Assembly (NCBI GenBank): GCA_965649215.1
Contig: CBFGJZ010000006.1
Coordinates: forward strand, 3,108 to 67,107
Direction: 5' to 3'
DNA length: 64,000 nucleotides
Source: a candidate division WOR-3 bacterium
GTDB lineage: Bacteria; Hydrothermota; Tepidihabitantia; Tepidihabitantales; CAIPLT01
The notes under the pieces were generated by a model. The model made no database searches. It worked only from the letters and a program-made list of their open reading frames with translations, and had not been told where the DNA came from. Positions 86-37,867 of the stretch are shown here, in pieces (positions within the stretch are counted from its first letter, which is position 1; the number at the start of each line of letters is the position of its first letter). A program made the translations under genes and the position numbers.

Positions 86-3000
86 ATGCCTAAAATCATT
101 ACTGAATCTGAAGTTGAAATCGCAGTTCTGGATATTCTAAAGGATTTAGGATATTCGGTTTTTTATGGTCCAGATATTTCTGAAGGCGGTCTGTTTGCGG
201 AACGAAATTATAATGAAGTGGTTTTGACCAGAAGGTTAAGAGATGCTTTAGAAAATATTAATCCTGATATTCCTAGTTTAGCAATCGACGAAGCAATTAA
301 AAAGATTATAAGAACCGACAGCCAAAATTTAACTCTTAATAATCAGTCTTTTCATAAGATGGTTACAAACGGCGTAGCGGTTGAATACCGACGGAAAGAT
401 GGCAGTATTAAGCATGATATTGTTTGGCTCTTTGACTTTAATAACATTGAAAATAATGAGTTTTTGGCAGTTAATCAATTTACTGTAGTTGAAGAGCGTA
501 ATACCCGAAGACCAGATATTGTTTTGTTTGTTAATGGCCTGCCAATTGTGCTGATTGAGTTAAAGAACCCAACTGATGAGAATGCGACAATTTGGTCCGC
601 ATATAATCAGTTTGAGACCTATAAACAGCAGATTCCATCTTTGTTTAGATTTAATGAAGTTTTGGTTATCAGCGATGGTTGGGAAGCAAGGGCAGGAACT
701 TTGACATCTAACAAAGAGCGATTTTCGCCCTGGAAAACGATTAATGGACAAAAGATGCCCGAATATTTTTCACAACTGGAAGTGCTTTTAAGAGGAATGT
801 TAAACAAAGAAGTTTTATTGGATTTAATCCGACATTTTATCGTGTTTGAGATTGATAAAGATAAGAAAGACGGAAACCTAAAAATTTCTAAGAAACTGGC
901 GATTTATCATCAGTATAATGCGGTAAATAACGCGATTAAATCAACAATCCGAGCATTGGCATTAGATAATTTAAAAGTCAGTGAATCACCTGAACGATAT
1001 GGTCTGCCATCAGTACAAGAACAACCAAAAGGCGATAAAAGGGGAGGTGTGGTCTGGCATACTCAAGGTTCAGGTAAAAGTTTGATAATGGTATTTTTTG
1101 TTGGCAAACTGATTTTACAACCAGAACTGGAAAATCCTACTATCATACTTCTAACTGACCGAAATGATTTAGATGACCAGTTATTCGAAACATTTAACCG
1201 ATGTCAGGAACTTATAAGACAAGAGCCCAAACAGGCAGAATCCCGAGAAGATATTCAGGAACTTTTGAAAGTCTCATCTGGTGGGATTATATTTACCACA
1301 ATTCAAAAATTCTTACCAGAAATTAAAGGAACAAGATATCCATTGTTATCTGACCGAAGAAATATTATTGTGATTGCGGATGAAGCACACCGAAGCCAGT
1401 ATGATTTTATTGATGGTTTTGCCCGTCATATTAGAGATGCACTACCGAACGCAACTTTTATCGGATTTACGGGTACTCCAATTGAAAAAGCAGACCGAAG
1501 TACACCAGCAGTATTCGGTAATTATGTTGATATTTATGATATCCAACAAGCGATCAATGATAAAGTTACGGTGCCAATTTTTTATGAAAGTAGACTTGCG
1601 AAACTGGAACTAAAACCCGAAGAACGACCGCATATTGATGAAGATTTTGAAGAGGTTACTGAAGGTGAAGAGATTGAACATAAAGAACGATTGAAAACTA
1701 AATGGGCAAGATTAGAGAAGATTGTCGGGGCAGAAAATCGAATCAAAAGAATTGCCGATGACATTGTCAAACATTGGGAAAATAGATTGTCTGTGATTGA
1801 TGGTAAAGCAATGATTGTTTGTATGAGCCGAAGAATATGTATTGATTTGCACAATGAAATAGTGAAATTAAGACCCCAATGGTATCATAAAGATGATGAT
1901 AAAGGCATTATCAAAGTCGTAATGACTGGTTCAGCAACTGACCCCCTTGAATGGCAAGAACATATTCGAAATAAAGAAAGGCGGAGGGCAATTGGTGAAA
2001 GGATGAAAGACCCATCTGACCCAATGAAAATTGCGATTGTGCGGGATATGTGGCTAACTGGATTTGATGCCCCAAGTTTGCATACAATGTATATTGATAA
2101 ACCAATGCGCGGGCATGGATTAATGCAAGCCATTGCACGAGTAAATCGGGTTTTTAAAGATAAAAACGGCGGTTTAATTGTTGATTATATCGGTATTGCG
2201 GTTGATTTGCAAAAAGCAGTTGTCCAGTATACTGAAAGCGGTGGCAAAGGTAAACCAGTTTTTTACCAAGAAGAAGCAGTGAAAATATTACTTGAACAAT
2301 ATGAAATAATTAAAGAGATGTTTTATGGCTTTGATTATACCAAATTTTTCAAACTAGACACAAACGAGAAAATTCTCTTTCTACGGGAAGCAATGGAACA
2401 TTTACTACAACAACCCGATGGTAAAGAACGGTTCTTAAGAAATGTCAAGAAATTATTGTCGGCATTTGCGCTGGCAGTTCCCAATGAAGAAGCATTGGCA
2501 ATAAAAGACGATGTTGGTTTGTTTCAAGCGATAAAATCAATGATTGCAAAATCAACCCCAACATCAGAAAAAGAGCAAGAAGATATTGAGTCGGCAATCA
2601 AGCAAATATTATCGAGAGCAATTGTTTCAGACCGAGTGATTGATATATTTGCGGCAGCAGGACTACAAAAACCTGACTTATCAATTTTATCGGATGAATT
2701 TTTAGCCGAAATAAAGGGTATGCCCCAGAAAAATCTAGCATTTGAAATGCTGAAAAAATTATTGAATGATGAAATAAAAATAAAATTCCGGAAAAATATC
2801 GTTGAGGCAAAGAGATTTTCTGAGTTGTTAGAAGAAGCAATTAAAAAATATATTAACCGAACAATTGAAACCGCCCAAATTATTGAAGAGTTGATTAACC
2901 TTGCCAAAGAAATGAAAGCAGCCCACCAAAGAGGTGAACAATTAAATCTATCTGAAGATGAATTGGCATTTTATGATGCATTGGAAGTTAATGATAGTGC

Positions 3001-3235
3001 GGTGAAAATTCTTGGAGATGAAGTGTTACGAACAATCGCAAGAGAGTTATTTGAAACCGTGAGAAGAAATATTACCATTGATTGGACATTGAGAGAAAAT
3101 GTTCAGGCAAAATTAAGGGTGATGGTCAAAAGAATATTAAAGAAATTCGGTTATCCGCCAGATAAACAGCAAAAAGCAACTGATTTGGTATTAGAACAAG
3201 CCAAAGTGATTTGTAAAGATTTAGTTGCCGCTTAA
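86..3235 (+). CDS. hsdR: Type I restriction-modification system endonuclease R subunit (HsdR); start ATG overlaps the stop of an upstream same-strand gene (probably hsdS or hsdM, outside window)
   Basis: 1049 aa; N-terminal HsdR-N-like region, DEAH helicase motif (IADEAHRSQ), motif VI-like QAIARVNR, typical length for type I R subunits. Confidence 0.85.
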
Positions 3236-3444
3236 TTTTTATTTCTGTTAAAATTTATCTCTTCTCCCATTTTTTCTTAAACTTCTTTTTATTTATTTTT
3301 TTTTATTTTTTTTGTCCAAAAAATCGCGGTGAGTCCGTCATAGATAGATGGTGAGAGTAAATAGTTATCAAAGCCGACGATTTTTTATCTTTGGCAATAT
3401 GGCTTATTTATTCTTGCCTAAATCAGTTCTCAGAAAGGACTTCT

Positions 3445-3852
3445 ATGAAAGACTCACTTTTTGCGAAAAAGATTGAGTACCAACGGGCCATTGCCCGCTT
3501 AAACCAACGCATTAAAGAACTCCAAGATAAAGTCCGACAATTTAAAGCTAAAGAGAAAGTTGTTGACTCACGCATTCATTTGGATATGCTTAATAATAAT
3601 ATCACTGCTTATCAAACCCTCAATTATCAATTTGAATTGAGTCGTGATGTTATCAGCCAAATCATTGAAAGTGAACGCGAAACGGCAATGAAATATGATA
3701 AACGCTATCAGATTGGCTTATTTCATACTGTGATTAATGGCATGCGACTGAAACAATGGGTGCGTAAGACTTTAGAGCAGAACCAGAAACCACCGAATTT
3801 TGTGAAATATGACGAGTTTGTAAAAATTATCGCAAGACCGCTTAACGAATAG
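3445..3852 (+). CDS. Hypothetical coiled-coil protein; the ORF track starts at 3391, but AAAGGA 6 nt upstream of the ATG at 3445 favours the shorter form
   Basis: Intact ORF, RBS-like AAAGGA upstream of MKDSLF, local GC about 45 % versus about 35 % flanking; no recognisable family. Confidence 0.5.
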   Translation: MKDSLFAKKIEYQRAIARLNQRIKELQDKVRQFKAKEKVVDSRIHLDMLNNNITAYQTLNYQFELSRDVISQIIESERETAMKYDKRYQIGLFHTVINGMRLKQWVRKTLEQNQKPPNFVKYDEFVKIIARPLNE

Positions 3853-3871
3853 GGCAGGCCTGACTACTACT

Positions 3872-3894
3872 CGGGGTCTTGCCCCGGGGTTTTG
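3872..3894 (+). terminator. GC-rich hairpin (cgggg-tcttg-ccccg) followed by a short T-run; putative intrinsic terminator or attenuator between the two small genes
   Basis: Perfect 5-bp GC stem, overlapping palindrome ccccgggg, then gtttt. Confidence 0.4.
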
Positions 3895-3955
3895 GGTATT
3901 ACAGCCAAAAATTAATTTTGGATATCACTTTTATAAAGAAAGGAGGTGATATTTA

Positions 3956-4327
3956 ATGGGTGTTAGACCAGCATCAAGACGATTAGAAAAATGGGATAAT
4001 AACTTTTCGGGTGATGTTTTATCAGAACGAATGAAGAATTATAAAGATAAGATGCGCGAACAACTCTCTAATATCTTTCCCTTGCAAGAGACCTTAGAAA
4101 ATGAAGTTAAGACCATTCTTGCTGAAGCCGGTACTTCCACAGTCTTAAATCCTGCGTACTTGAATTTTGGGCGAGAAGTGTTAAAACTCTGCCAAAAGTT
4201 TTCGGGTGGCCAGTTGATTAATGCTGTGGATGTCGTGTTGAATAAATGGGTGGCACGAGCATTAGACCGTGATATTTTAGAGCGCATTCGTAATACGGTC
4301 TTTGCGTTAGTTGGACCATCGCCATAA
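3956..4327 (+). CDS. Hypothetical protein (123 aa) with strong Shine-Dalgarno AAAGGAGGTGA
   Basis: Intact ORF, canonical RBS 8 nt upstream, GC-elevated; no recognisable domain. Confidence 0.55.
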   Translation: MGVRPASRRLEKWDNNFSGDVLSERMKNYKDKMREQLSNIFPLQETLENEVKTILAEAGTSTVLNPAYLNFGREVLKLCQKFSGGQLINAVDVVLNKWVARALDRDILERIRNTVFALVGPSP

Positions 4328-4349
4328 GAATTTAATAAATATAATACTA

Positions 4350-4671
4350 CTGTCGGTAAGATTGCTTCAGTCGCTTCACTCCTTCGCAATGACAAAAACG
4401 GGACTGTATGTAAGATTGCTTCAGTCGCTTTGCTCCTTCGCAATGACTAAAGGGTAAATGTCATTGCGAGCGAATGTAATGAGCGTGGCAATCTTGCCGA
4501 CAGTGAGAAAAAGAGAATACAAAGACACTATGATGATTAAGGGATTTTTACCGGCTGTAAGATTGCTTCAGTCGCTTTGCTCCTTCGCAATGACAAAAAC
4601 GGGACTGTATGTAAGATTGCTTCAGTCGCTTTGCTCCTTCGCACTGACGAGACTTGGAGTCTTGCCGACAG
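4350..4671. repeat. Cluster of palindromic repeat units. Four direct copies of a 38-nt unit (gtaagattgcttcagtcgctttgctccttcgcaatgac) lie at 4356-4393, 4410-4447, 4557-4594 and 4611-4648. The first two and the last two are each separated by an identical 16-nt spacer. An inverted, diverged copy lies at 4460-4505, and the cluster is bounded by ctgtcgg / ccgacag terminal inverted sequences.
   Basis: Read directly from the sequence. The spacer aaaaacgggactgtat is identical at 4394-4409 and 4595-4610. The same unit recurs at 8945-8982. Confidence 0.85.
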
Positions 4672-4684
4672 TAAAGATTAAATA

Positions 4685-5314
4685 ATGCGTAATAGTTATA
4701 AGAATTTTATTGTGCTTTGCGAAAGGGATATTCGCAAGCATTTTGAAATCTCGTATAATTCTGTATTAGTCCTACGCCAAATCTTTTTCTACCAACAAGG
4801 CAACTTAAAGAAGTGTATTGCATCAAAACCGACCTTATGTAAGCATGCGCAGATTTCCAAACGCTCGTTATATTATTGCTTAAAAGAACTGCAACTTAAA
4901 AATCTTATTCATCGCCAGCGCCGAAGTATTATCGTCAGCAATACTTTTTTACGCTATCTCAAGTATCTTTACGAACTATACGAACGCTGTTTAACTTGGG
5001 CCGAATTTCATAAAATTAAACTCCAATGGTTCTGGAAGAGATGCGGCCAAAGTATGGAAAAGTTATTCTGTTATCTTCGGGGTAATAGTGAGACTTGCAC
5101 TTATCAGTTAAAAAAATTGCACCCTAACAGTAGATTAAACTCTTCTCATGAGTTTAATATGAACAGTAGAAGCCGTCTTCGTTTGCGGTTATTAATCCAA
5201 CAAGAATTAGAGCGCTTATCCGCTCATGAATTAAAGCAATTATATTTAGATAAACTGAATAATACCCGAAGTTTACAAAAGATTAGTATTAATAGTTTAT
5301 CGGTATTGAGATGA
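4685..5314 (+). CDS. Hypothetical protein with a predicted helix-turn-helix (…CKHAQISKRSLYYCLKELQLKNLI…); start uncertain and no clear RBS
   Basis: Intact 209-aa ORF directly 5' of the ECF sigma gene; HTH-like segment; basic, Cys/Tyr-rich. Confidence 0.4.
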   Translation: MRNSYKNFIVLCERDIRKHFEISYNSVLVLRQIFFYQQGNLKKCIASKPTLCKHAQISKRSLYYCLKELQLKNLIHRQRRSIIVSNTFLRYLKYLYELYERCLTWAEFHKIKLQWFWKRCGQSMEKLFCYLRGNSETCTYQLKKLHPNSRLNSSHEFNMNSRSRLRLRLLIQQELERLSAHELKQLYLDKLNNTRSLQKISINSLSVLR

Positions 5315-5327
5315 TTCTCTTCTTCAT

Positions 5328-5816
5328 TTGCCTGATTATAATCTCCTACGCGAATGGTATCAGCAATATCGCTTTGCGTTATGGCACTATATTAAAAAAC
5401 GGATTAAGAATTATGACGATGCCCAAGATTTATTGAGTGAAGTTTTTAAGCGAATGATTACCCATGCCGACAGTCTAAAAGATATCAAAAAGGTTAAAAG
5501 CTGGCTCTGGCAAATTGCTCATCATTTAATTGTTGACTATTATCACCGCCAACACTACCAACGCAATCAGGTAGTTTCGTTAAGTGAAGACAATGAAAAT
5601 AATCTTATCGCAAAAAGTGAGAATCTGCTCTTAAATAGTGCGGTTCAAAAGACGCTTAATAAACTACCCAAAGCCCAAGCCCAACTTTTGATTTTACGAC
5701 ACTTTGAAAATCGGGATATTGCCGAAATCGCACAAATTACTAATAAAACTCAAAGTGCGACTTATAAAGCACTGCGCCGCGCCGAAGCGCATTTTAAGAA
5801 AATATATCATCCTTGA
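5328..5816 (+). CDS. RNA polymerase ECF-type sigma-70 factor (orphan; no anti-sigma gene follows)
   Basis: Sigma-70 region 2 (DAQDLLSEVF…WLWQIAHHLIVDYY) and region 4 (RDIAEIAQITNKTQSATYKALRRA) signatures. Confidence 0.75.
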   Translation: MPDYNLLREWYQQYRFALWHYIKKRIKNYDDAQDLLSEVFKRMITHADSLKDIKKVKSWLWQIAHHLIVDYYHRQHYQRNQVVSLSEDNENNLIAKSENLLLNSAVQKTLNKLPKAQAQLLILRHFENRDIAEIAQITNKTQSATYKALRRAEAHFKKIYHP

Positions 5817-14835: not shown

Positions 14836-15489
14836 ATGATTAAGCAATTACAAAAGCCCACGGTGCATCCTGCCCTTCCTCCCGCTGACTCTGAATTAGT
14901 TAAACGAGCACAACATGGAGATAATCAAGCTTTTGAAGAGTTAGTGCGGCGTTATGAACAGAAAATTTATAATACCGCATTTCGGATGTTGGGTAATCAC
15001 GAAGAAGCCAAAGATGCGATGCAAGATGCTTTTTTACGGGCTTATCGTTTTCTTAAAAAATTTAAAGGGGATTCATCATTTTACACTTGGTTGTATCGTA
15101 TTACCACAAATGTCTGTTTAACCCGTCTTAAACAACGCCAGAATAAAGAAGCCAAAACCGAATCGTTAGATGCCCCTCTAAGCGAAAATGAAGATTTGCA
15201 ATGGGAAATTCCTGATTATAAATATAATCCTGAGTTATTATATGAACGCCAGCAGATGCAAAAAGCCCTGCAAGATGCGATTAATGAATTGCCATCTGAC
15301 TATCGTTCCGTAGTAATTTTACGAGACCTGCAAGGGCTTTCTAATAAAGAAGTGAGTAAAGCACTACGATTGTCTGTCGCATCAGTCAAATCTCGCTTAC
15401 ATCGAGGCCGAGTCTTTTTACGACATCGGTTGTCTAAATATATAGATAAAAAAGTTATTAGTAATGAGAAATTGAAAGGCTATTTATGA
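14836..15489 (+). CDS. ECF sigma factor (RpoE-like)
   Basis: Region 2 (FEELVRRYEQKIYNTAFRMLGNHEEAKDAMQDAFLRAY) and region 4 motifs. Confidence 0.85.
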   Translation: MIKQLQKPTVHPALPPADSELVKRAQHGDNQAFEELVRRYEQKIYNTAFRMLGNHEEAKDAMQDAFLRAYRFLKKFKGDSSFYTWLYRITTNVCLTRLKQRQNKEAKTESLDAPLSENEDLQWEIPDYKYNPELLYERQQMQKALQDAINELPSDYRSVVILRDLQGLSNKEVSKALRLSVASVKSRLHRGRVFLRHRLSKYIDKKVISNEKLKGYL

Positions 15490-34384: not shown

Positions 34385-35737
34385 TTATTTGAAAAATAAA
34401 ATTGTTATTAGTTTTATATAAAATATAATAACGATCGCTGATATTATTGCAATAATACTACCATATTTAATCATATTCCTAATTTTTATTAAACCTGAAC
34501 CATAAGCAATTGCATTTGGTGGCGTACTAACTGGTAAAATCATCGCAATTGATGCTGCAATACTAACAATTAATGCAGTATCTATTGATTTAGCAGTAAG
34601 GCCGACTGCGATCGGCAATAAAATTGCAGCAGTACTAGTATTGGAAATAAAACTAGTTAATATTATAGTTATAATAGATAGCCCAGCTAAGAGTAATAAA
34701 CTCGGAAATGCTTGAAAATTTAATAAATTAACAAACCAATTGGAAAGGCCACTTTTTTCGATCGACATTCCCAGTGATAATCCACCACCCATTAATATTA
34801 AAGTATCCCAACCTAAATTACCAAAATGCTCTTCTTTTAATAAACCAAAACCACTAAAAATTATTACTGGAATTAACGAAACAATACTCGTTGGAATTTT
34901 ATGCAATTCTGCTGTTAACCATAATAAAAATGTAAGCCCAAATACTCCTAATACTAACTTTTGTTCAGATGTAAATCCTTGTGTCTTATTTTCAATTAAT
35001 TGAACATTTTTTATCTTGGATTTAAAGCCCATCTTTAATATCAAATAAATAATGATAAAAAGTAAAATTGTTAATGGGACAGCAAATGCCATCCAACCGA
35101 TAAAAGATAAATTAATATTTTTAGAACGCAATATGCTAATTGCTAATGCATTTGGTGGTGTTCCAATGGGAGTAGCAATTCCACCGATATTAGCGGCAAA
35201 AGGAATGCCTAAAGCAAGGGCGGGTATTAGCGGGTCTTCGGGAGGGATATTTTGCTTTAAGACTAATACTAAGCCAATCATTAAAGCGGTTGTTGCTGTA
35301 TTAGACATCCACATTGAAAGAAATGCAGTAACTGCCATTAATCCAATTAGAACCCGATTAGAATCGTTACCAATGCGTTTTAGAATTAAGAATACAAACC
35401 ATTCATCTAAATCATATTTTTTTAAAGCTTGAGCTAATACTAAACCACCTAAGAACAATACAATAACTGAATCAAAAAAAGGTACAAGAAATATTCGAAA
35501 ATTATCACCCATGGGCGGAATATGAGTGAGAAATACTGCTTGTAAAAATAAGATAATAAACGAGGTAACATACAAAGGAACAACTTCACTAATCCAGAAT
35601 AAAGAAGCGATAATCAAAATGCAAAGAGTCCTTTTACTTGCTTCGGTTAATCCATGAATAGGAAGTAAATAAATAATTAATGTAATTAGGGTAAATAATA
35701 AAATTAAGATTATTTTTTTTATTGTTTCTTTTTTCAC
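34385..35737 (-). CDS. Anion permease of the ArsB/NhaD-DASS (SLC13-like citrate/di-carboxylate transporter) superfamily
   Basis: 450 aa, 10+ TM segments, duplicated GGxxTxxGTPPN-type hairpin motifs (IGTPPNALAI; VSTPPNAIAY). Confidence 0.65.
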   Translation of the reverse strand: MKKETIKKIILILLFTLITLIIYLLPIHGLTEASKRTLCILIIASLFWISEVVPLYVTSFIILFLQAVFLTHIPPMGDNFRIFLVPFFDSVIVLFLGGLVLAQALKKYDLDEWFVFLILKRIGNDSNRVLIGLMAVTAFLSMWMSNTATTALMIGLVLVLKQNIPPEDPLIPALALGIPFAANIGGIATPIGTPPNALAISILRSKNINLSFIGWMAFAVPLTILLFIIIYLILKMGFKSKIKNVQLIENKTQGFTSEQKLVLGVFGLTFLLWLTAELHKIPTSIVSLIPVIIFSGFGLLKEEHFGNLGWDTLILMGGGLSLGMSIEKSGLSNWFVNLLNFQAFPSLLLLAGLSIITIILTSFISNTSTAAILLPIAVGLTAKSIDTALIVSIAASIAMILPVSTPPNAIAYGSGLIKIRNMIKYGSIIAIISAIVIIFYIKLITILFFK

Positions 35738-35755
35738 AGGATAGTTTAATGTATC

Positions 35756-37867
35756 TTATAAGAGGAATCGGGCATCAATTGCTACTGCTCCTTTTCCCTC
35801 TTCATATACAACAAATGGGTTTATGTCTATTTCATTAAACTCAGGAAAGTCGGTTGTTAATTGGGATAATCTTTGTAAAGATTCTTCAATTATTTTTATA
35901 TCCGCTGGCCCTTTACCTCTAAATCCCTTAAGAATTCGATAACTCTTTATTTCTTGAATCATATGGAGTGCTGATAAAGCTTTAATTGGACAAATTCGAA
36001 AACTGACATCGCGCAGTACTTCCACATAAATACCACCTAAGCCAAACATAATAAGCGAACCAAATTGAGGATCTTTTTTAATACCCATAATTGTTTCAAT
36101 ACCGCGTGCTGCCATTTTTTGTATGAGAAATCCTTCAATTCGTGTGGTTGGTTTTAGAGCTTTAATTTTATTTTGCATTTCTTTGTATTTGCTTATTAAT
36201 TCGTCATCATTGTTGATATCAATTGCAACACCACCAACATCGGTTTTATGCAGGATATCTGGTGAAACTACTTTCATAACTAGCGGATAACCGATTTCCT
36301 TTGCTTTTGTTATTAATTCATCAGGAGTTTTAACTAAAGTATTTGGTAAAATAGGAATCTTATAAGCATTGAGAATTTGGTAACCTTCATTTTCAAGAAG
36401 TGCCTTGGGAGAACGATTTTGAACATTTTTAATAATCATTGCTACTGTTTCTTTGTCGACATCATCAAAATATCTTACTTCGCTTTTTGGTAGTTGAGTC
36501 CAATCATAAAATGAACACATGTTGGCTAAAGCTTTTGCCGCAGTTTCAGGAAAAGGATAATATGGTATTTTAGCTTGCCATAATGTTTGAATTACTTCTT
36601 TTGTATTTTCTAACGATAAAAGACAACCCATAATTGGTTTAGCATAATTGGGAGCAATTTTGATGATTTCTTGAGCAATCGTTTTTGTCTCAGCCATTAA
36701 AGTTGGTGTCCAGATCGCGATGATGCCATCCACATTATCATCTTCTAATAATAATTTAAGCGCTTGGGAATATCTCTTTTCGTCCGCATCTCCAATTACA
36801 TCAAGAGGATTGTTAATACTCGCTGAAGAAGGTAAGAAGTTTCTAAGACTCTGTTTTGTTGTTTCGGTGAAAGTAGATAATTGTAATTCATTTCTAATTA
36901 CAGAATCCGTTGCCATAATACCCATTCCACCCGCATTGGTAATAATTGCCATCTTACGAGATTTTGGAATTGGTTGTCCAGAGAATGCTTTAGCATAATC
37001 AAATAACTCACTTACTGTATCGACTCGGATAATACCACATTGATGTAAAAATGCGTTATATGCCTCATCAGAACCAGCTAAAGCACCAGTATGAGAAGAT
37101 GCCGCCTTTGCACCTTCTGTAGTCCGGCCTGACTTAATTGCCAAAATTGGTTTACCAATATTTGCTGTGACATCATACGCTACATCCATAAATTTTTTAG
37201 GATACACTAAATCCTCTAAATAAAGGATAATTACAGTTGTTTGTTCGTCGTCTCGAAGATATTCCAATAAATCATTTTCATTGATATCAGCTTTATTACC
37301 AATTGAAATAAACTTTGATAATCCAATTCCCTCTGCTTCTGCATATTCTAATGCAGTTACCCCAACTGCACCACTCTGAGAAACAAAAGCAATATTACCA
37401 CTCGGTGGCAATGCTTTACCAAAAGTTGCATTAAGCCGAACCCGATGATCAGAATTTATCATACCAAAACAATTAGGACCGATTAAAGAAAGATTGTGTT
37501 TCTGGGCAATTTCTTTAATTCGTTTTTCTAACTTAAGACCGCTCTCCCCTATTTCTTTAAACCCCGCAGTAATAATTATGGCACCTTTTACATTTTTTTG
37601 ACCGCATTCTTCAATTATTTCTGGAACTGCCGGAGCAGGAACAATTATAACCGCTAAATCAACCTCGTCAGGAATATGCAAAACCGATGGAAATGCTTTT
37701 ACTCCGAGCACGCTCCGAACATTAGGATTAACCGGATAAACAATACCTGTAAATCCGTTCATTAGGATATTAGCAAAAGTTGCTTGCCCAACACTGCCGG
37801 CTCGAGTTGAAGCCCCAATTACGGCAATTGAGCGCGGCCAGAAGATAAACTTTAAATTCGGATTCAT
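35756..37867 (-). CDS. Acetate--CoA ligase (ADP-forming) / NDP-forming acyl-CoA synthetase, fused alpha+beta
   Basis: N-terminal CoA-binding (VIGASTRAGSVG) and succinyl-CoA-synthetase-like domains plus C-terminal ATP-grasp; 703 aa. Confidence 0.8.
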   Translation of the reverse strand: MNPNLKFIFWPRSIAVIGASTRAGSVGQATFANILMNGFTGIVYPVNPNVRSVLGVKAFPSVLHIPDEVDLAVIIVPAPAVPEIIEECGQKNVKGAIIITAGFKEIGESGLKLEKRIKEIAQKHNLSLIGPNCFGMINSDHRVRLNATFGKALPPSGNIAFVSQSGAVGVTALEYAEAEGIGLSKFISIGNKADINENDLLEYLRDDEQTTVIILYLEDLVYPKKFMDVAYDVTANIGKPILAIKSGRTTEGAKAASSHTGALAGSDEAYNAFLHQCGIIRVDTVSELFDYAKAFSGQPIPKSRKMAIITNAGGMGIMATDSVIRNELQLSTFTETTKQSLRNFLPSSASINNPLDVIGDADEKRYSQALKLLLEDDNVDGIIAIWTPTLMAETKTIAQEIIKIAPNYAKPIMGCLLSLENTKEVIQTLWQAKIPYYPFPETAAKALANMCSFYDWTQLPKSEVRYFDDVDKETVAMIIKNVQNRSPKALLENEGYQILNAYKIPILPNTLVKTPDELITKAKEIGYPLVMKVVSPDILHKTDVGGVAIDINNDDELISKYKEMQNKIKALKPTTRIEGFLIQKMAARGIETIMGIKKDPQFGSLIMFGLGGIYVEVLRDVSFRICPIKALSALHMIQEIKSYRILKGFRGKGPADIKIIEESLQRLSQLTTDFPEFNEIDINPFVVYEEGKGAVAIDARFLL

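Follow-up and report, generated by a model that had tools for sequence, protein, structure and literature searches.

The major capsid proteins (MCPs) of SIRV2-like viruses are built from two N-terminal and three C-terminal helices, which form a helical arm plus a C-terminal bundle (10.1101/2025.08.23.671958; PMC7189273). The SIRV2 MCP serves as the model for dimers whose N-terminal arms wrap double-stranded (ds) DNA (PMC12282232; PMC7189273), and in lipothrixviruses and tristromaviruses the MCPs are MCP1/MCP2 heterodimers (PMC12282232). In the searchable literature the SIRV2-type fold is specific to archaeal viruses, and a bacterial relative is unexpected; we found no report of bacterial homologues in the literature searched, the coverage of which was incomplete. 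Here we describe such a relative, the product of gene B, in a 64-kb stretch of a candidate division WOR-3 bacterium (contig CBFGJZ010000006.1, positions 3,108 to 67,107; hereafter the window). Gene B is the second of two small genes, A and B, that follow hsdR, the gene for the R subunit of a type I restriction enzyme (Table 1). Related loci are designated by L numbers.

A structure for B was predicted with AlphaFold2 from 34 of its 68 close homologues. The model (predicted local distance difference test score, pLDDT, 87; predicted template modelling score, pTM, 0.76) has N-terminal helices at residues 6-16 and 24-58 and C-terminal helices at residues 66-81, 84-100 and 105-119, i.e., the same two-plus-three layout as the SIRV2-like MCPs. 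In a Foldseek search of the PDB, the best seven matches of B were all MCPs of adnaviruses, the archaeal filamentous viruses. The matches included SIRV2 3j9x (template modelling score 0.70), SSRV1 6wq0, AFV1 5w7g, 3fbz and 3fbl, and SIRV 3f2e. Among the predicted viral structures of BFVD, the top matches were coat proteins of rudiviruses and lipothrixviruses, including those of SIRV and SSRV1.

Sequence profiles gave the same relatives. A B family profile (alignment A1) matched SIRV2 with an expect value (E) of 1.3e-5 and SSRV1 with 5.6e-5 in full-length alignment, and the alignment contains an N-terminal R..S.R..KW.AK motif common to the B family and the SIRV2 and SSRV1 coat proteins. With a broad profile of 100 members (A7), the E values were 2.1e-9 for SSRV1, 2.2e-8 for SIRV2, 1e-3 for 6d5f and 6e-3 for AFV1. 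The eight best PDB matches in the profile searches were all adnaviral MCPs; the 6d5f chain bears the tool label 'Fimbrial protein', and the entry is one that we take to be that of the virus SFV1. When B alone was scanned against Pfam, the sole match was Sulf_coat_C (PF12193), a family of coat proteins from rod-shaped viruses that infect Sulfolobus; the match was weak (E 0.0019) and covered the full length. Of 100 family members, 28 match PF12193 individually, the best with an E of 4.6e-12. Neither A nor B had a meaningful match in NCBIfam or PHROGs.

B thus has the all-alpha, arm-plus-bundle fold of the Adnaviria MCP superfamily, and its family profiles show the sequence similarity. What B does not have is the setting of a linear dsDNA virus genome, which is 17-42 kb long, has terminal inverted repeats and typically carries an adjoining glycosyltransferase gene. 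Instead, B is in a bacterial chromosomal window, flanked by hsdR and the gene for an extracytoplasmic function (ECF) sigma factor. Because the viral genome context is lacking, we do not file B as an adnavirus capsid gene. That B is a bacterial, chromosomal variant of the SIRV2-type capsid-protein superfamily is well supported, and we regard the homology of B to adnaviral MCPs as established.

Gene A is a DUF7307 protein and a recurrent, conserved upstream partner of B. The likelier start of A is the ATG at 3445, preceded by an AAAGGA ribosome-binding site. Against Pfam DUF7307 ('Pam3 gp33-like') A scored 28.0 bits, over a cut-off of 27, with residues 15-127 aligned to positions 8-124 of the 129-position profile, and all nine family members scanned (alignment A2) matched DUF7307. 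There are 41 homologues of A, about 132 aa long, in metagenome-assembled genomes (MAGs) of WOR-3, and the window's A is the most divergent. The protein is basic (pI 9.8), and in its AlphaFold2 model (pLDDT 83) an N-terminal helix of 50 residues leads into a small alpha/beta domain; a fold search with the model was uninformative. The possibility that A is a diverged paralogue of B was rejected, hhalign giving a probability of 0.1 %. By tblastn, A has a weak match to a DUF7307-like gene between the helicase and DNA polymerase I genes of Stenotrophomonas phage BUCT555. A lies just upstream of B in nine unique loci, and in some loci an opposite-strand gene for a protein secreted by the type IX secretion system (T9SS) sits between the two. 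The original prediction, made from the sequence alone, had found no recognised family for either protein; this was wrong, A being a member of DUF7307 and B of the Adnaviria MCP superfamily.

The B family is large. The 68 close homologues are nearly all exactly 123 aa long and come mostly from WOR-3 MAGs. An exhaustive profile search, with clusters made at 50 % identity, found 901 clusters at E <= 1e-3 and 271 at E <= 1e-10, most of them of 120-130 aa. In a subclass of 230-480 aa the MCP-like domain is N-terminal and is extended by beta-rich, coiled-coil or LamG-like parts. Extensions of these kinds, the coiled-coil ones being tail-fibre-like, are seen in six members of 290-480 aa (P0160, P0172, P0179, P0182, P0244 and P0256), and in P0183 two MCP-like domains are fused in tandem; these six and P0183 are all from short metagenome contigs. 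Hosts were assigned from MAG labels and bacterial neighbour genes. WOR-3 MAGs carry 3-5 copies of B each, often at contig ends (five loci in SZTDM-2 bin 113, three each in CROMO_A_102 and AM-sed bin-250). The median ratio of non-synonymous to synonymous substitution rates (dN/dS) among B copies was 0.12 over 95 pairs, indicating purifying selection.

The expression signals of B are also conserved. The leader GGATGG..GAAAGGAGGTG, which contains a strong Shine-Dalgarno (SD) sequence, is conserved among B copies. In the window, the start of B is preceded by a 13-nt SD match, GAAAGGAGGTGAT, bearing out the strong ribosome-binding site of the original prediction; the other 47 open reading frames (ORFs) of the window that were checked have matches of at most 7 nt. 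Downstream of B homologues there is, at at least 14 loci, a hairpin in which all nine stem pairs covary and the loop ACTGCC is constant (alignment A5: L022 1200-1247, L006 452-499, L001 10402-10449 and 11 other loci). An A-run precedes the hairpin, which may be a bidirectional terminator. The window's B lacks this hairpin, and a cluster of 38-nt repeats occupies its place.

Annotated contigs recovered via the homologues of A carry a fuller cassette with the order divergent ECF sigma gene, 115-116 aa MCP-like paralogue, 248-314 aa protein, A, B (L077 3103-6375 and L085 4144-7781, both of GCA_965649255.1; L084 4006-7021). The second MCP-like paralogue shares 35-40 % of its residues with B and is matched by the profile with E values from 1e-23 to 1e-31. 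The 248-314 aa protein ('MKYTITINQ...') had no match in Pfam, PHROG or PDB. The 3.3-3.6 kb cassette occurs twice in GCA_965649255.1, at 90-99 % identity, and the homology of the duplicates ends three bases past the B stop codon. Of this cassette the window keeps A, B and a sigma gene. Gain and loss of a B-containing unit can be seen in contig L001 of a sister genome, which is syntenic with the window over 29-40 kb at 72-79 % DNA identity. L001 contains an 8.3-kb block with two small ORFs, genes for an ECF sigma factor and a B homologue, and the Res and Mod genes of a type III restriction-modification system; the genes that flank the block encode a Na/sulfate symporter and a CoA ligase, and in the window they are separated by about 90 nt (filled site, L001 6654-18364; empty site, window 34385-37867). 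With the block in L001 and the flanks adjacent in the window, the unit has been gained and lost. Two further conclusions are well supported: B moves as part of a small cassette that also includes DUF7307 and, in many cases, an ECF sigma gene, and the cassette resides in variable, defence-rich regions. These comparisons also support the A-B module as putative horizontally mobile island cargo. The proposal that the pair is horizontally acquired defence-island cargo therefore stands insofar as the module appears mobile, island-borne and defence-adjacent, while the GC argument made for it is weak (see below).

We put first, and tentatively, the explanation that B is a capsid-derived cassette protein with a DNA-coating role. 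The A, B and nearby ECF sigma genes of the window would be a reduced, rearranged copy of a virus- or plasmid-derived cassette of about 3.5 kb. The cassette would duplicate in WOR-3 genomes and land in variable, defence-rich regions, and hence the position beside hsdR. B dimers would wrap dsDNA with their N-terminal helical arms, sequence-independently, as the SIRV2 MCP does; going by that analogy, DNA binding by B is rather probable. B would be abundant, as the 13-nt ribosome-binding site suggests, and probably under the control of an ECF sigma factor, the linkage to sigma genes pointing to conditional expression; its task would be to coat or protect DNA. The analysis shows the fold of B, its sequence homology, copy number, selection, mobility and gene neighbourhood, and from these we infer that B wraps DNA, that sigma controls it and what its biological role is.

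Several observations weigh against this explanation. B alone scored 18.8 bits against Sulf_coat_C, for which the gathering threshold is 25.2 bits. B has a pI of 9.2, and its N-terminal half has a pI of 6.2 and so is not strongly basic. The cassette has no recognisable ends, neither inverted repeats nor a target duplication being seen. The window lacks both the second MCP-like paralogue and the 250-300 aa gene; a 209-aa protein encoded in the window was considered as the counterpart of the latter (f92 family) and rejected, there being no detectable similarity. Around the window copy there are no genes for virion proteins, an integrase or replication. Further, the strong enrichment of defence genes beside B might reflect a role in defence and not just a shared location.

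A defence role, in which the host keeps a capsid homologue for anti-virus defence or for restriction-modification (R-M) housekeeping, is our second-ranked explanation and an unlikely one. B might be a decoy subunit that poisons the assembly of infecting adnavirus-like viruses, cf. capsid-derived restriction factors, or a DNA coat or regulator tied to the R-M system next to it. A census of the nearest neighbours of B, 133 genes at 48 unique loci in a modest, partly fragmentary contig set, included nine T9SS cargo proteins and five each of N6_N4 DNA methylases, ECF sigma factors and DUF7307 proteins. The five methylases compare with well under one expected from our rough estimate of gene frequency. 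B copies adjoin R-M, AbiE, HEPN or Fic genes unusually often: directly beside B are type I R-M in the window, type III-like R-M in L001 and L004, methylase pairs in L006/L077 and L028, Eco57I/MmeI-type genes plus a RAMA protein gene in L034 and L032, AbiEii in L084, HEPN in L037, and Fic in L019/L025. A defence role draws on this adjacency to at least four R-M types, with types I, IIG and III and methylase pairs among them, plus AbiEii, HEPN and Fic. It also draws on a fusion protein. L004 (16210-16869, minus strand) and L017 (1126-1794, minus strand) encode 219-222 aa proteins with an HTH_3/XRE domain and a B-like bundle; the C-terminal 75 residues (in L004) are homologous to the bundle of B, with profile E values of 3.5e-9 and 9e-11. 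The fusion is encoded by the first gene of a type III-like R-M operon, the position of a controller protein. A further point in favour is that virus-like contigs with two MCP genes and a bacterial-type endolysin, described below, occur in similar environments.

The co-occurrence with R-M systems in related genomes that the original prediction looked to is found for many B copies, but many others adjoin housekeeping genes (rimP-nusA-infB, GluRS, fumarase, Rnf). For this reason a strict R-M partnership of B was rejected, and the housekeeping neighbours likewise speak against a defence role. Adjacency is itself weak evidence, because mobile elements and defence genes share integration hot-spots. 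Selection on B is purifying, not diversifying, which argues against an arms-race decoy, and there is no conserved effector-like partner. In the test for known anti-phage systems, neither A nor B matched any PADLOC-DB 2.0 model at E <= 1. The original prediction had suggested an abortive-infection system, a toxin-antitoxin pair or an anti-restriction function; neither protein matched such a family, and the assignment of the A-B pair to a toxin-antitoxin, known defence or anti-restriction family is not supported. A type II toxin-antitoxin pair was rejected given the terminator-like hairpin between A and B and the lack of a toxin-antitoxin family in Pfam, NCBIfam or PADLOC; nor is there strict co-occurrence, A being found with B in only about 9 of 48 loci. 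An R-M controller protein was also considered for B and rejected: B has no helix-turn-helix (HTH) domain and lies downstream of hsdR, and only the L004/L017 fusion fits.

In many loci, a gene whose product is secreted and sorted by the T9SS (Por_Secre_tail, often with SBBP beta-propellers) is divergent from B and just upstream of it (L005 1458-3167, L008 7854-9503, L023 8158-9534, L078 3458-4927, L080 1-5034, L082 782-3936 and others).

A live or recently live virus-like element is a quite improbable alternative to the DNA-coating role. Under this explanation B, with its paralogue as heterodimer partner, would package a small element, or a larger virus with its remaining genes elsewhere. The two MCP paralogues per cassette mirror the MCP1/MCP2 heterodimers, near-identical cassette copies are found within one genome, some family members have C-terminal tail-fibre-like or LamG-like extensions, and DUF7307 is a phage-associated family. 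Yet the cassettes, at about 3.5 kb, are without an integrase, terminal inverted repeats, a glycosyltransferase or lysis genes, and most B copies are solo genes between cellular genes. A provirus at the window copy was rejected because no viral genes are nearby. Further, a pattern scan of IMG/VR with the close-family alignment found no relative of B, and tblastn with B and one distant member found no match in 50,697 phage and 72,556 plasmid records. One candidate for such an element is a contig of 5,075 bp with three B paralogues and ends that overlap by 127 nt, but its carbamate kinase gene is truncated and the circle may be an artefact of a chromosomal repeat.

The contig in question, L044 (1-5202), has a perfect terminal overlap and so appears circular; its B paralogues are in tandem and the carbamate kinase gene is truncated at the 5' end. 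It could be a small episome or a repeat assembly artefact. In a second group of metagenome contigs, of high GC content, two SIRV2-like MCP paralogues in tandem are found together with genes for a GT2 glycosyltransferase, a tail-fibre-like protein (PHROG 13892, 2.8e-9) and a Peptidase_M15 endolysin (L070 4970-8422, L071 406-2672, L073 1115-3381, L074 186-2715, L075 4283-8589). The endolysin shares about 35 % identity with those of phages of Vibrio, Proteus and E. coli. These high-GC contigs resemble pieces of adnavirus-like viruses that infect bacteria, and such viruses would be new.

Might the bundle of B act not on DNA but on the neighbouring ECF sigma factor, as an anti-sigma-like or co-regulatory partner? 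Anti-sigma domains are small helical bundles, and the order sigma gene then B on the same strand is found in L001, L028, L038 and L060. Linkage of a sigma gene to B extends to the window, L023, L027 and L084 as well as these loci, L060 representing a lineage of 62 % GC. The window sigma factor (5328-5816) is 30 % identical, with an E of about 1e-18, to those of L023, L027 and L084; a second ECF sigma gene in the window (14836-15489) encodes a protein 27 % identical to the sigma factor of the L001 island. Nevertheless we consider a sigma regulator very improbable. Gaps of 200-300 nt, and a leader and ribosome-binding site of its own, argue that B is not co-translated with sigma. Other loci have the sigma gene in divergent orientation or downstream, and for most B copies there is none in the vicinity; no anti-sigma structures were found among the fold matches. 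Finally, that B is an ordinary small helical protein with a chance or convergent resemblance to capsid proteins is close to refuted, since, although the Foldseek E values are modest (7e-3 at best) and small helical bundles are prone to false structural matches, the full-length Pfam match, profile E values down to 2e-9 and fold matches restricted to adnaviral MCPs are three independent lines that agree.

The layout of the locus is given in Table 1.

Table 1. Features of the window at and around genes A and B (window coordinates).
Feature	Coordinates	Strand	Basis or remarks
hsdR, type I restriction enzyme R subunit	86..3235	+	context gene, outside the module
AT-rich intergenic stretch, 28.7 % GC, with T-rich tract 3236-3330	3236..3444	+	presumed promoter region of gene A
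Gene A, DUF7307 family, 135 aa	3445..3852	+	Pfam; AlphaFold2 model; homologues
Terminator-like G+C hairpin and T-run between A and B	3870..3898	+	8 pairs, 6 of them G-C
Shine-Dalgarno sequence of gene B, GAAAGGAGGTGAT	3938..3950	+	13-nt match
Gene B, 123 aa, homologue of SIRV2-type (Adnaviria) MCPs	3956..4327	+	fold, profiles, Pfam
38-nt repeat cluster	4348..4673	no strand	four direct copies, one diverged inverted copy, one partial copy
209-aa protein, possible module member	4685..5314	+	weak winged-helix or DnaD/replication-initiator-like N-terminus
ECF-type sigma-70 factor	5328..5816	+	Pfam Sigma70_r2 and r4_2

The arrangement described in the original prediction, two intact small genes directly 3' of a type I hsdR, was borne out by the coordinates and by the hsdR matches in Pfam (T1RH-like_C, 3.8e-131; SWI2_SNF2, 5.6e-80; HSDR_N, 1.4e-50). 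The T-rich tract upstream of A (described as poly-T/A), the 123-aa length of B, the repeat cluster after the gene pair and the GC hairpin between the genes were likewise confirmed, the hairpin stem lying at 3870-3888, terminator-like, and followed by the tail GTTTTGGG. The coiled-coil ascribed to A agrees with the long N-terminal helix of the model, which is coiled-coil-like. Of the 136-153 aa given for A, the upper figure holds for a start at the TTG at 3391, and the likelier ATG gives 135 aa. A promoter-like site upstream of A (3225-3254) did not score above chance.

One claim did not hold over whole features: a GC content of about 45 %, against 33-38 % in neighbouring genes. The GC contents are 37.0 % for A, 40.6 % for B and 37.1 % for the whole noted region, compared with 35.9 % for hsdR, 37.4 % for the sigma gene, 38.0 % for a WG-repeat gene and 32.8 % for the window. 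The compositional signal is weak, because only B reaches about the 95th percentile (0.40) of 400-nt windows and, at third codon positions, A and B have the same GC content (GC3, 0.36-0.38) as the genes downstream.

The 38-nt repeat, GTAAGATTGCTTCAGTCGCTTTGCTCCTTCGCAATGAC, is present as four direct copies, arranged as two 54-nt-spaced pairs, along with the single diverged inverted copy and the partial copy. It is found nowhere else in the window, where 0 matches are expected by chance, and was not found in any related locus. The 16-nt 'spacers' are identical to one another, which rules out a CRISPR array. Nothing relevant was found when the region was scanned with Rfam and for tRNAs. The 209-aa protein gave matches to PHROG 186 (E 0.0011) and PHROG 8102 (E 0.005).

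If these interpretations are true, a large bacterial family, in part chromosomal and in part on virus-like contigs with a peptidoglycan endolysin, would provide the missing outgroup, and possibly an ancestor, for the SIRV2-type capsid fold, and would suggest that bacteria have filamentous viruses with A-form DNA or proteins that derive from such viruses. Whether descent ran from cell ancestor to virus or from virus to domesticated gene, the picture of the origin of Adnaviria would be altered. B would also be a small, easily expressed protein for DNA-wrapping tests outside hyperthermophilic archaea, and its repeated adjacency to R-M, Abi and HEPN genes makes it a candidate for a capsid-derived defence or DNA-protection function. 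A broader proposal is possible though doubtful: the SIRV2-type fold would extend beyond archaeal viruses, WOR-3 and other phyla would keep sigma-controlled, DNA-coating proteins of capsid type, as chromatin-like protectants, as protectants resembling small acid-soluble spore proteins (SASPs), or as antiviral decoys, and the two-MCP contigs with an endolysin would be an unrecognised adnavirus-like branch infecting bacteria.

Of the described systems, the rudiviral MCPs of SIRV2 and SSRV1 (Rudiviridae; PF12193; 3j9x, 6wq0) are the closest to B. They are 128-134 aa long, compared with 123 aa for B, and share with it the N-terminal helical arm and C-terminal bundle (for B, in the model) and the R..R..KW motif, at an identity of only about 20 %. 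The rudiviral genes are in linear archaeal virus genomes, whereas B is in a bacterial WOR-3 chromosome. Unlike a rudiviral MCP gene, B is found as multi-copy solo genes or in 3.5-kb cassettes, without adjacent glycosyltransferase or virion genes. The MCP1/MCP2 viruses (Lipothrixviridae, Tristromaviridae and SFV1; 5w7g, 6d5f) have two paralogues, as do the L077, L084 and L085 cassettes, but the cassette genes are two genes apart whereas the MCP1 and MCP2 genes are adjacent, and the window has a single MCP-like paralogue.

Outside the viruses, two protein groups offer functional analogies with B. SASPs of the alpha/beta type are small, abundant proteins that are made under a dedicated alternative sigma factor, coat DNA, shift it towards the A-form and protect it. 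The analogy with B is purely functional and entirely inferential, as the folds and sequences are unrelated and B has no sporulation context. H-NS-like 'stealth' nucleoid proteins of islands and plasmids are small, oligomerising, DNA-coating proteins with several paralogues, often encoded in horizontally acquired DNA. Here too the analogy is one of function, with no relationship in sequence or fold, and a preference for AT-rich DNA and gene silencing are H-NS-like features for which B provides no evidence. As for the controller (C) proteins of R-M systems, B itself has no HTH, and its transcription either converges on that of the R-M genes or is independent of it, whereas the L004 HTH_3 fusion, with its B-like bundle, sits in the C protein position.

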